NCBI GenBank assembly: GCA_043818275.1
Contig: JBDRFY010000065.1
Location: 1-14,406 of the forward strand
DNA length: 14,406 bases
Direction: 5' to 3'
Source of the DNA: a bacterium
GTDB taxonomy: Bacteria > Babelota > Babeliae > Babelales > JAUWHS01
Part shown: in pieces, positions 1 through 14,406 of the stretch
How positions within the stretch are numbered: the first letter of the stretch is position 1
How the letters are laid out: every line of letters starts with the position of its first letter
Notes under the pieces: model-generated
Seen by the model: the letters and a program-made list of their open reading frames with translations, nothing else
The model's database searches: none
Told to the model about the DNA's origin: nothing
Made by a program: the position numbers and the translations under genes

Positions 1-250
1 GCTGAGCACGATATTTTTTATCGAGGACGAAGCGAGATGTTATCAGCCCCCTCAATTCAAGCGTTCAAGAATTGAAGGCGCTTTTTACAACAACTTATTT
101 CAATATATCAATGTTGATATTTAACATACAAGGACGAGCGGAGAGTGTTTCTTTCCCTTCTTCGTGTAAAACTTCGCAGGGTGCTCCGAAGCCTTGGCGG
201 GGGATGCAGAAGTAGTTTATACTGAATTTATCGAAGGGTTTAGCACGAGC
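1..250. repeat. Mosaic cluster of REP-like palindromic modules downstream of bamA
   Basis: GC-rich patch. CTGAGC..TCGAGGA at 2-27; AGGACGAGCGG at 131-141 (exact reverse complement of 14142-14152); head-to-head CGAAG hairpins at 155-207; AGTTTATACTGAATTTATCGAAGGG at 214-238, similar to 13091-13158 once the insert there is removed. Confidence 0.75.
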
Positions 251-8808: not shown

Positions 8809-9021
8809 TAGGCCCGTAGGGGCGACACATAAAAATGATTTTGAAAATTTATGTGCCGCCCCTACGGGCCTAGGTTGGTGGTATTATTCTTTATCCAGAG
8901 CTGCAACGCTTCGTACCGCACATGGCGGCACACTGGGCTAATAAAAGTCGCCCATTTTTCTTCTTCGCTAAAGCTTCGCAGAATCAATCTGCCGAAGTTT
9001 AAACGTAGGCTGACATGGGCT
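8809..9021. repeat. GTAG-type REP inverted pair plus a third, interrupted copy carrying nested hairpins
   Basis: 25-bp inverted repeats at 8809-8833 and 8848-8872 (1 mismatch, core GTAGGGGCGAC). GTCGCCC (8947-53) ... CATGGGC (9014-20) is split by a CGAAG hairpin doublet. GTACCGCACATGGCGGCAC at 8913-8931. Confidence 0.8.
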
Positions 9022-12996: not shown

Positions 12997-13070
12997 TGGG
13001 AAGTCGTCTAGTGGTAGGACCCTGGATTCTGGATCCAGTTACAGAGGTTCGAATCCTCTCTTCCCAGCCA
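12997..13070 (+). tRNA. tRNA-Gln (anticodon CTG)
   Basis: Acceptor stem TGGGAAG/CTTCCCA with the U1-A72 pair typical of Gln; D arm GTCTAGTGGTAGGAC; anticodon stem CTGGA/TCCAG with loop TT-CTG-GA; T arm AGAGG-TTCGAAT-CCTCT; discriminator G and encoded CCA. Confidence 0.97.
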
Positions 13071-13168
13071 GCCTTCGCTCCAAGGAGCGGAGTTTATCCT
13101 GCATGTCCTGCGAAGTACCGCCATCTGGCGGCACGAAGTAGGGAGCTGTGTCGAAGGGGCTGGGCAGC
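13068..13168. repeat. Four-level nested palindromic repeat attached to the tRNA 3' end
   Basis: CCAGC-CTTCG-CTC-CAAG-GAG-C [GGAGTTTATCCTG {CATG-TCCTG-CGAA (GTACCGCCATCTGGCGGCAC) GAAG-TAGGG} AGCTGTGTCGAAGGG] GCTGG. Each layer has a relative elsewhere in the window. Confidence 0.75.
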
Positions 13169-13330
13169 TTGCTCCGACAAAGCTTTTACTCTTTCGCTTA
13201 AGCTTAAAAGCAGAAAAAAGATGTATAAATTATAAATTCTGGCTTTTTTCAAATTAATATATTAATTTTTTGTAGATTGGTTAATTGGTCATAAGAGTAA
13301 CTTTAAACGAATCGAAGGAGCTAAGCAATC

Positions 13331-13534
13331 ATGGCATATAGCGTAAAATCCAAAAAAAGTGGAAAAATGTATTATCTTCACACCAAAGAAGTAAAGCTTG
13401 CAGGTGATCGCAAACAAAGAATTTATTATTTTGCAGGTGAGGCAGGTAAAAACACATTAGATGCATTGCCAACCGGATATGAAGTTATGGAAAACAAGCG
13501 CACCGGACTTCCAATGCTTCGTAAAAAGAAATAA
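13331..13534 (+). CDS. Small basic hypothetical protein
   Basis: 67 aa. Strong GAAGGAG SD at 13314-20; beta-strand-like YYLH and IYYF motifs; LPTGYEV and TGLPMLRKK; hairpin downstream. Confidence 0.85.
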   Translation: MAYSVKSKKSGKMYYLHTKEVKLAGDRKQRIYYFAGEAGKNTLDALPTGYEVMENKRTGLPMLRKKK

Positions 13535-13565
13535 TCAAATTTTTCAATAGAACGTTAATTTTTTT

Positions 13566-13598
13566 AAGGCTACGGTTAATAAATTTAACTGTGGCCTT
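13566..13598 (+). terminator. Hairpin between convergent genes, probable terminator
   Basis: AAGGCTACGGTTAA and TTAACTGTGGCCTT form a 14-bp stem with two G:U pairs on the + strand; the U-tract is weak. Confidence 0.55.
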
Positions 13599-14028
13599 AT
13601 TCATATTGAATTTTTTTACCGCGCATTTTTTTGATTTCGCCTCGATGTTTTTTTACTTGCAGGCGAGATTCTTTTGCTTTTTTTGGAATTCGCGTTTTCA
13701 TTCTTTTTTTAGGAACATGCATAGCTTTAGCGATTTTTTTTGCCATACGCTCAAGCGCCATTTGTTTGTTTTGTAGCTGACTGCGTGTTGCGTTACTGTG
13801 AATAATTAAGTCCCCATCCTTTGTTAATTGTGTTTGTAGATTTTGAAGAACTCGTTCTTTTTGCTCTTCATTTAAAGCTGTTGTTTTTTTTACATTCCAA
13901 CGCGCGGTTATTCGTGTATCTGTTTTGTTAACGTGTTGACCTCCGGCTCCGCCCGACCTGCTTGTTGATATCTCAAGCTCATGACCGGGAATAACAATGC
14001 TATTTTTAACAGGCAAATCATTTTTCAT
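13597..14028 (-). CDS. arfB: Alternative ribosome rescue factor B (peptidyl-tRNA hydrolase, YaeJ)
   Basis: 143 aa. RSGGAGGQHVNKT (GGQ motif); RSQLQNK; basic C-terminal tail with PKKRMKT and SRLQVKKHRGEIKKMR. Confidence 0.95.
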   Translation of the reverse strand: MKNDLPVKNSIVIPGHELEISTSRSGGAGGQHVNKTDTRITARWNVKKTTALNEEQKERVLQNLQTQLTKDGDLIIHSNATRSQLQNKQMALERMAKKIAKAMHVPKKRMKTRIPKKAKESRLQVKKHRGEIKKMRGKKIQYE

Positions 14029-14141
14029 AAAGACCCTTTTTTAATAAAAGCTAAATCAATATTTTCAAAGTTTTAATTTATATACTGATGTTACGCATAA
14101 TCTTAATTTCTTTATTATGCTCAAATAAAAAATATCCCACA

Positions 14142-14207
14142 CCGCTCGTCCTGCCTGCCTGCCGAAGCCTTGGCGAAGGTTGGAGCGCAGTCGAAGGATT
14201 ACGAGCG
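14142..14207. repeat. REP-like palindrome interrupted by a CGAAG-family hairpin
   Basis: CCGCTCGTCCTG [CCTGCCTGCCGAAGCCTTGGCGAAGGTTGG] AGCGCAGTCGAAGGATTACGAGCG; the outer stem CGCTCGT/ACGAGCG is perfect. Confidence 0.8.
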
Positions 14208-14272
14208 ACAAATTCGTGAATAAATATTTATTGAATTGTAAATTTTCATTGCATACATTCTATACACAGGAG

Positions 14273-14404
14273 TTACGCAATATAACCAAAGTTTCTACTG
14301 AATGACCTTATCCGTTGCCACGATTTAGTCAGTTTTGCGGACTGAAGATAACTTACCGCATCTTCAGTCCGTTCATAATTTAATTTAAAAGATACTTCTT
14401 GCAA
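14273..14404 (-). CDS. Possible 3' end of a gene running off the window
   Basis: 43 sense codons open from the window edge (LQEVSFKLNYERTEDAVSYLQSAKLTKSWQRIRSFSRNFGYIA, stop TAA at 14273-75); no recognisable motif. Confidence 0.4.
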   Translation of the reverse strand: MQEVSFKLNYERTEDAVSYLQSAKLTKSWQRIRSFSRNFGYIA

Positions 14405-14406
14405 AA

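Follow-up and report, generated by a model that had tools for sequence, protein, structure and literature searches.

How does a hairpin of 30-42 nucleotides (nt) come to lie, in differing sequence, at exactly the same bond of another short repeat? This question is raised by the window analysed here, which is the whole 14,406-nt contig C65 (JBDRFY010000065.1) of G000 (GCA_043818275.1), a draft genome from the bacterial phylum Babelota (1.33 Mb in 92 contigs, 30.8% GC, 94% complete, 4.2% contamination). Two copies of a host repeat, named H1, stand on the plus strand of the window, and each is split by an insert hairpin, named Z, on the same strand. At site 1, an H1 of the subtype with the tag AGTTTAT (13089-13158) is split at TG^AG by a Z of 42 nt (13102-13143, tag CATG). 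At site 2, an H1 with an outer stem, belonging to a longer repeat subfamily (14142-14207), holds a Z of 30 nt, or 10 codons (14154-14183). The two inserts are copies of one element. A previous sequence-only reading had placed both at TCCTG^AGC, each composed of CMTG, 5 nt, CGAAG, a loop, CGAAG and 5 nt ending in GG, with no duplication on both sides. Its coordinates and geometry were right, and the lack of a duplication was borne out, the junction sliding by one base (a shared G). We consider Z to be, very probably, a discrete mobile unit. The fuller explanation, to which we give somewhat better than even chances, is that Z is a 30-42-nt hairpin with exact ends, from the tag to the stem foot, that would land without target duplication, mostly directly after a purine, be moved in trans by a small Slx1-like nuclease, and find a hotspot in the TG^AG bond of H1.

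The hairpin unit and its empty sites

Strict patterns matched 55 Z, 78 unfilled H1 and 18 composites of the two in the genome, and these counts are not due to chance, since five of five local shuffles gave none of the three. A looser census found 77 tagged Z, of which 46 are 30 nt long. When the hairpins themselves were counted (n = 136), 69 carried the CNTG tag, while the rest lacked the tag or had a variant of it. The general consensus, CNTG-YCNNN-CRWAG-loop-CGWVG-NNNGR, is broader than that of the sequence-only reading, and each unit contains one hairpin, not separate left and right ends.

In 113 composites of other genomes, the stem shows covariation between its first and last bases (C-G 67, T-A 33, T-G 13, C-A 0). 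On the CGAAG strand, G.T exceeds A.C at arm pairs 3-5 (37:6, 19:4 and 10:1), which marks this strand as the one under selection to fold. The two CGAAG motifs would presumably make a zipper of sheared purine pairs. Behind tRNA 3' ends the CGAAG strand is the non-transcribed one, and in genes it lies in either orientation, which points to single-stranded DNA (ssDNA) as the probable substrate. A function as RNA was rejected: Rfam matches are to tRNA only, copies run both ways in genes, and the strand that is transcribed behind tRNA 3' ends is not the one under selection.

Four public runs were compared with the window (X4 is an RNA run and was not used as evidence of transcription; X3-X6, whose word shares are small, did not serve to place the habitat). 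One of the four, X2, contains an empty allele of site 1. There, a 105-nt contig with a depth of 4.1 covers 13040-13100 and 13143-13186, skipping exactly 42 nt with a one-base slide, and both flanks are unique in the genome. The same run also contains 13157-13236 and 13279-13575 with zero mismatches. At site 2, contigs of X1-X3 have loose ends at 14154 and 14183. A paralogous pair offers both states of this site: C13 is filled with the same 30-mer as site 2 (at C13:35315), C20 is empty, and about 100 nt of their flanks are near-identical. In the dnaK gene, a 30-nt Z adds exactly 10 codons relative to four of four orthologues that span the site, a fifth contig stopping short of it. A tilS-like gene is longer than its short orthologues by 15 to 19 residues, and glmS by 12 or 13.

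In these comparisons, the empty sites differ from the filled ones by exactly the insert, with 0-2 shared bases in most cases. Classical target duplication was rejected, as the TGG/GGG repeats at tRNA ends correspond to insertion inside the end, which the arms restore. The sequence-only reading had proposed a non-autonomous unit with exact ends and no target duplication, and this is upheld by the empty orthologous and paralogous sites; the comparison of filled and empty loci that it had suggested yielded clean empty states at site 1 in X2, at C20 and in the dnaK orthologues. The tRNA-Gln loci of relatives are too diverged to place the Z junction, the dnaK contig of the one same-genus genome stops before the site, and same-genus pairs in other families, at 74-80% identity, are too distant for intergenic comparison.

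H1 as a hotspot among many landing sites

A tag-anchored search for H1 gave 107 matches genome-wide: 44 short and unfilled, 42 whose loop is expanded, 17 filled at CTG^AG and 4 other. Among the 77 tagged Z, 22 lie in H1, directly after CTG (21) or CCG (1), and in no H1 of G000 did the loop, the 3' arm or the opposite strand hold a Z. Insertion at a fixed bond, as the sequence-only reading had it, is therefore what G000 displays (22/22), and not random positions. The composite is also not one fixed unit, because 19 distinct inserts, with 15 arm pairs, are spread over the 22 filled H1, which are of several subtypes; 6 of 14 arm types occur in non-H1 copies as well. When Z is located at TG^AG, the host is H1 in 20 of 24 cases, while the TG^AG sites available number 108 in unfilled H1 versus 707 in other non-coding DNA and 4,303 in coding DNA (by a crude mask of open reading frames). 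In G000, TG^AG of H1 acts as a recurrent hotspot for Z, which has other targets as well.

What did not stand is the idea that Z targets the H1 family sequence-specifically. Fifty-five of the 77 copies lie elsewhere; in the 21 relatives rich in both repeats (at least 20 unfilled H1 and at least 10 Z each, by strict patterns that miss variants such as one G023 composite), 27 of 1,496 H1 are filled; and relatives use a second bond. The fill rate is 17-19% in G000, G032 and G064. Across 150 relatives, the pattern of filled H1 gave 44 matches in 20 genomes. The second bond, TCGA^AG, gave 12 matches in seven relatives, and of ten loci read, five lie in the 3' arm of H1-type repeats and five in Z; as a minor bond of H1 it is used in three relatives. 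Both H1 bonds adjoin the tandem G.A motif of H1 and stand before AG. An H1 with its own CNTG tag and YC..GR stem ends was seen in several phyla (loci L050-L159), and the sequences suggest a wider superfamily of CNTG-tagged hairpins with differing internal motifs. Gene-less inverted pairs of H1, about 120-160 nt apart, are common (C12, C13, C14, C30, C50, C62 and C90).

The hosts of the 69 strictly tagged Z are H1 (17), a second palindrome, H2 (8), an IS605-like end (7), a RAYT repeat (6), a fifth hairpin (4), Z itself (4), tRNA CCA ends (9), tRNA-Ser 5' ends (2) and others (12), and several of these groups are single founders amplified along with their host. H2 carries a TGTC tag, and Z uses the corresponding bond in it: 8 copies are filled, 21 empty and 2 other, with one extra base in two of the filled ones. 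In all four tRNA-Ser genes (C13:27652, C13:27902, C50:52528 and C78:52509), the final bases of a Z are the first bases of the tRNA; these genes start with GGAGAG, which fits a G^AG preference. Z was also observed at TG^AG on the antisense strand of tRNA-Arg-like 5' (D arm) fragments beside intact tRNA-Arg genes (G000:C13:27160-27290 and C50:67250-67290).

Outside tRNAs (175 targets), position -1 is a purine in 80% of cases versus a background of 46%, position -2 is G in 42% versus 25%, and in 49 of 175 the cut is followed by AG. Pairing between the -1 base and the arm's initial base is seen in 80 of 175 targets versus 62.5 in shuffles (p 0.002). A long guide pairing between arm and target was rejected, being not significant beyond -2 at non-tRNA sites.

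Within genes, Z or H1 with Z was seen in frame in dnaK, alaS, uvrC, glmS, rpsF, a tilS-like gene, bacA and the genes of a phosphatidylserine decarboxylase and an S41 peptidase (contigs C83, C19, C38, C62, C5, C56, C88, C18 and C21), and one open reading frame of C21 carries three composites. The length of copies in long open reading frames is divisible by three in 21 of 22. All 22 H1-borne Z are 30 or 42 nt long, with 14 of them within long open reading frames, whereas outside H1 the length is divisible by three in 33 of 55; frame selection therefore filters the survivors.

Of 151 genomes of the phylum, 102 contain strict Z; copies per genome range over 0-87 (reversed control 0-1). A metagenome search with the CTTG tag and loops of up to 14 nt gave at least 119 loci; 110 matches were kept and 13 dropped for poor pairing. 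Among these 110 listed matches, 12 stand at CG(A/T)^AG in other hairpins, 4 at CCA ends, 94 elsewhere and none in H1. Together with the low fill in relatives and the location of most copies elsewhere, this led us to reject a dedicated parasitism on H1. Among the viral contigs of IMG/VR, a search with the CCTG tag gave 124 loci (L334-L457), of which 66 well-paired ones were kept and 53 dropped, with none in H1; viral contigs are a possible route for Z between phyla. The composite of Z in H1 was found at no fewer than 110 loci (at least 110; 80 with titles) in a search of all GTDB genomes. The matches listed contain 54 arm pairs and come from Planctomycetota, Patescibacteria, Bacteroidota, Chloroflexi, Desulfobacterales, Opitutales, Kiritimatiellales, Bacillota and others.

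A candidate partner gene and the rival explanations

Besides uvrC, the genome contains six small GIY-YIG genes (PF01541), four encoding 80-81 and two encoding 91-97 amino acids. Two of the six, closest to UPF0213 (by PDB match, one tested), both lie between inverted H1 copies. The other four have SLX1 as their best PDB match and are 22% identical to the UPF0213-like pair; all four follow tRNA 3' ends, and three have Z hairpins just upstream. The Tyr, Gly, Arg, His and Glu motif columns, which we take to be catalytic, are invariant in an alignment of small GIY-YIG proteins (A1), and NCBIfam offered no family for any of the five proteins tested. The sequence-only reading had called for nuclease genes flanked by these modules. 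Such genes exist for GIY-YIG enzymes, with H1 on both sides of the UPF0213-like genes and Z upstream of the Slx1-like ones, but not for Y1 transposases, which are flanked by repeats of their own. Cassettes of the form H1-gene-H1 with a UPF0213-type gene stand at C75:30740-31170, C18:20440-20870 and L048 (G027:C7). Both H1 ends of the G027 cassette are filled by Z, and the H1 loops of the C18 cassette hold untagged Z hairpins.

Co-occurrence was counted across 150 relatives in the order Z with gene, Z without gene, gene without Z, and neither. For the Slx1-like gene the counts are 86/15/8/41 (odds ratio 29), or 36/3/58/53 at a threshold of at least 10 copies; the link is also seen within families f20 (35/5/2/13) and f3 (11/0/0/9) and is weak in f13. 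For the UPF0213-like gene they are 39/62/10/39 (odds ratio 2.5), and for Y1_Tnp no co-occurrence with Z was detected among these relatives (34/67/14/35, odds ratio 1.3, p 0.58). In the 20 relatives with filled H1, the Slx1-like gene is present in 19, the UPF0213-like gene in 14 and Y1 in 7. Of 29 foreign Slx1-like loci, 27 were parsed: Z lies within 300 nt upstream in 19 and downstream in 2, and a tRNA end lies upstream in 17. Among 31 loci examined, 15 cassettes conformed to the pattern, and in all 15 the tag of the Z nearest the gene shows complementarity to the dinucleotide that follows the tRNA CCA. Co-occurrence and linkage make the Slx1-like GIY-YIG gene a likely candidate for the partner of Z.

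In the mechanism that we propose, the 80-residue Slx1-like nuclease would bind the folded CGAAG strand of Z in trans, as ssDNA, and cut at both ends of Z, which would then be joined at a nick after a purine. The resulting composite would be multiplied by the movement of H1 itself (inverted copies of H1 bound the UPF0213-type genes) or by conversion from one H1 copy to another, and selection would keep lengths divisible by three in genes as well as arms that restore tRNA ends. For the cut-and-join route we see a little less than even chances. A more specific version, in which Z would be a 30-base nano-transposon, excised and re-inserted as ssDNA by a stand-alone Slx1-like nuclease, with a stem arm guiding the right end and the target, appears doubtful.

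Several observations weigh against the explanation by a mobile hairpin and an Slx1-like mover. GIY-YIG enzymes hydrolyse DNA, and we know of none that performs strand transfer; the joining step is thus without precedent and is the weakest of the mechanism. The empty allele of site 1 is one contig and does not give the direction of the change (insertion, excision or conversion), and no skip at site 2 was found in the four public runs compared. The uvrC copy brings a net gain of 3-4 codons only, therefore not all copies are clean, and junctions are off by one base in 2 of 8 H2 copies, 6 of 6 copies in the RAYT repeat and one G023 composite. Folding of the inserts alone with ViennaRNA, a model that leaves sheared pairs unscored, was no better than that of shuffles (z -1.3 and -0.3). 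At non-tRNA sites, pairing between arm and target extends barely or not at all to positions -3 to -5, and junction-spanning stems in reconstructed empty sites were not significantly enriched (p ~0.1 in each of three sets). The co-occurrence of Z with the Slx1-like gene is in part trivial, Z being carried by the gene cassette itself; related genomes are non-independent, and five genomes with 5-21 Z gave no gene hit. Finally, H1 fill is uneven, with zero in 11 of the 21 relatives rich in both repeats. Repeated targeting alone does not explain this, and high fill therefore needs lineage-specific amplification.

The uneven fill bears directly on a rival in which few Z entered H1 and the common bond reflects these founders, which would have spread as passengers of H1 or by homing-like gene conversion, with arms and loops exchanged later. 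The high fill of three genomes beside the low or absent fill of the other relatives agrees with such a history, as do the identical inserts at C13 and site 2 and the lineage-typical composites that recur in Pirellulales; conversion could also yield the empty allele of X2. We nevertheless find it rather unlikely, given the 19 distinct inserts in several H1 subtypes of one genome, the use of the second H1 bond in three relatives, and the recurrence of both ends in no fewer than eight unrelated contexts, dnaK among them. A true insertion process would still be needed, because the dnaK site offers no homology. The sequence-only reading had instead favoured an HUH enzyme (IS200/IS605 TnpA or RAYT) as the mover of Z in trans. 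Such an enzyme would act by peel-and-paste and make use of the tetranucleotide at the hairpin foot. HUH chemistry would provide the joining, the genome has five stop-free Y1_Tnp genes, and target duplication is absent. The tag of four bases 5' of the stem recalls those of GTAG repetitive extragenic palindromic (REP) sequences and the guides of IS200/IS605, and the common target reads CT on the opposite strand, CT being where TnpAREP cuts (PMC8266576). The cut of TnpAREP, however, falls between C and T, not after CT (PMC8266576), and the CT of the target lies on the strand without folding selection. The Y1 genes are flanked by their own repeats, themselves hosts of Z, and 13 of the 20 relatives with filled H1 have no Y1 hit. 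As Z tracks, and is physically linked to, the Slx1-like gene and not Y1/RAYT, an HUH mover is disfavoured, and we hold it to be improbable.

The H1 bond could also be a weak point, nicked by a UPF0213-type GIY-YIG enzyme or any ssDNA nuclease, where small DNA is captured. This would suit the IS110-type end (twice) and the reverse H1 pieces found at or beside the same bond, the two H1-gene-H1 cassettes of the genome, and the UPF0213-like gene in 14 of the 20 relatives with filled H1. It becomes very improbable, in our view, when the ends of Z are seen to be identical in hosts unrelated to H1; moreover, IS110 has its own predicted guides for the site, six of the 20 relatives gave no UPF0213-like hit, and the association of that gene with Z is the weaker one. 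An artefact of assembly or library, or polymerase slippage among GC-rich hairpins without an enzyme of its own, is scarcely credible and largely refuted. The genome is admittedly a contaminated draft in many contigs, and in its final 270 nt the window has matches to parts of C13, C49 and C64. Against this, X1 contains 14215-14404 and X3 contains 14183-14406 as single contigs with no mismatch, X4 contains 13123-13268, across the right junction of site 1, and the composite is present in many independent assemblies. In addition, the arms covary, and the unpaired tag belongs to the unit, which slippage would not respect.

Known systems, neighbouring features and meaning

By the features tested, Z is outside the Ssn/SRM, GTAG/RAYT and IS200/IS605 families. 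The Ssn nucleases (cd10448) with their NTS/SRM hairpins resemble it in having a small single-domain GIY-YIG gene, an oriented hairpin whose 5' tag is unpaired, an asymmetry between the strands and many non-autonomous copies, and the NTS-ssnA-NTS layout is that of the H1-gene-H1 cassette. SsnA, a small GIY-YIG protein, binds an ssDNA hairpin that bears a tag, its cut lying 5' of this hairpin (Chenal et al. 2025, PMC11893778). For Z, the skew of wobble pairs towards the CGAAG strand would be compatible with a site-specific cut in one ssDNA strand. The Ssn/SRM tag, however, is CGTC and that of Z is CNTG, and the SRM pattern had 0 matches in the whole G000 genome. Unlike the two-sided Ssn repeats, Z stands only upstream of the Slx1-like gene and behind tRNA 3' ends, although H1 does flank the UPF0213-like genes on both sides. 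For the Ssn system, the available text reports cutting, not movement, exact insertion or nesting (PMC11893778).

GTAG REPs and REPINs with RAYT, together with CGTC REPs, are similar to Z as 20-40-nt tagged imperfect hairpins with covarying stems, dimers and in-frame copies (PMC3733652, PMC8266576). REPs inside other palindromes, namely GTAG-15, GTAG-23 and CGTC-1 dimers, and REPs in frame within genes have already been mentioned (Di Nocera et al. 2013, PMC3733652), and how REPs spread is described as unsettled (Corneloup et al. 2021, PMC8266576). In contrast to the GTAG REP/RAYT system, Z has a tag other than GTAG, an internal purine zipper and no Y1 linkage, and it forms single units with exact filled and empty alleles that land in several repeat families, in tRNA ends and in themselves. 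With IS200/IS605 elements (IS608 logic, PMC8266576), Z shares a strand-specific hairpin, four bases 5' of the stem, the absence of target duplication and a hint of pairing between element and target; it differs in its single hairpin instead of two ends, and has no fixed 4-5-base target and no Y1 linkage. Rickettsia palindromic elements (cited in PMC3733652) are likewise in-frame palindromic inserts in conserved proteins, whereas the Z unit is exactly 10 codons and has a candidate mobiliser and an exact empty allele. Insertion sequences that target REPs (IS621/IS110, PMC11208160; Tobes and Pareja 2006 via PMC3733652) also land recurrently at one bond of a REP-like repeat, but Z encodes nothing, is without a CT core on both sides and has multiple targets. 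No description of the Z family was found in the full-text literature searched, which left out figures, supplements and most subscription journals; sequence strings gave unrelated papers only, and peptide strings likewise (20 of 539 matches listed).

An IS110-type element was found at the start of the window. The sequence-only reading had named two uninterrupted hosts, of which 214-238 (plus strand) is indeed a degenerate unfilled H1, while 2-27, although it reads CTGAGC..TCGAGG, lies inside the left end of this element (1-132, minus strand; its transposase gene is off the contig). The element is inserted at the CT (131-132) of an H1 whose left half occupies 131-141 (minus strand), one base before the bond used by Z. 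Positions 1-130 are identical to the start of C49, and the first eight bases are those of the IS110 left end on C62. Read on the minus strand, 2-30 contains a left guide (24-30) equal to the H1 target, an inner hairpin (9-23) and a right guide (2-7) complementary to the left guide. This layout is that of the target-loop guides of a bridge RNA (PMC11208160), and rather than a copy of H1, 2-30 is probably the target loop of an IS110 bridge RNA directed at H1. The IS110 element on C62 has the same layout, with predicted guides for the RAYT repeat that hosts it. Two different IS110-type elements (window 1-132, minus, and C49:1-131; C62:575-1230) carry predicted guides for two hairpin repeats, H1 and the RAYT repeat. 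As a mover of Z, IS110 was rejected, there being no CT core at the right junction of Z.

Site 1 lies behind a tRNA-Gln(CTG) gene (12997-13070, plus strand; ARAGORN and Rfam), whose CCA is the first arm of the next hairpin. By comparison with other tRNA 3' ends of the genome, this outer layer is a tRNA-end Z in reverse orientation (13068-13167, minus strand), with an arm at 13068-13072, a zipper at 13073-13077, a loop at 13078-13087 and the partner arm at 13159-13163, behind which stands a degenerate tag; its second zipper is mostly replaced by H1. The Z inserted in that H1 has arms at 13106-13110 and 13139-13143, zippers at 13111-13115 and 13134-13138, and an inner hairpin of 18 nt at 13116-13133. 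We infer that the layers were added in the order tRNA-end Z, H1, Z and inner hairpin. Site 2 is upstream of arfB and inside a longer mosaic repeat (14076-14290), parts of which match C49, C13, C20 and the end of C64. The H1 subfamily of site 2 is known in three states: empty (C20), filled by Z (C13 and the window) and filled by IS110 (C49). Two related short motifs, each ending GTTACGCA, lie on either side of the site, and X1/X3 support the join near 14266.

Untagged Z also occur in the window as two back-to-back pairs, one at 155-207 (155-181 minus; ~185-207 plus, degenerate) and the other at 8958-9013 (8958-8983 minus; 8988-9013 plus). A 25-bp inverted repeat at 8809-8872 is like the repeats beside the Y1/RAYT genes of the genome. 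A small lysine-rich open reading frame of about 67 amino acids (13332-13535, plus strand) shows 73-80% DNA identity across many relatives. The sole gene returned by a DUF559 search of the genome has this domain (G000:C47:1192-1494, minus strand) within an open frame of 675 amino acids.

With ends known to the base, known hotspots among its targets, one natural site that is polymorphic and a candidate enzyme of 80 residues, Z makes the question of how repeats spread approachable with few oligonucleotides and one small protein. If the explanation by an exact-ended hairpin and an Slx1-like mover in trans is true, Z would rank with the smallest mobile DNAs and allow a direct test of repeat spread, and it may give a very small site-specific ssDNA tool. 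Three parasites, namely Z, the nuclease cassette of H1 and IS110, would then compete for one three-base spot. In the nano-transposon version, the movement of Z would represent transposition by a nuclease class without known strand transfer, across many bacterial phyla and phages. In many uncultured phyla, Z would also be a source of in-frame protein loops, as 10-residue inserts in core proteins, and of rearrangements at tRNA ends.

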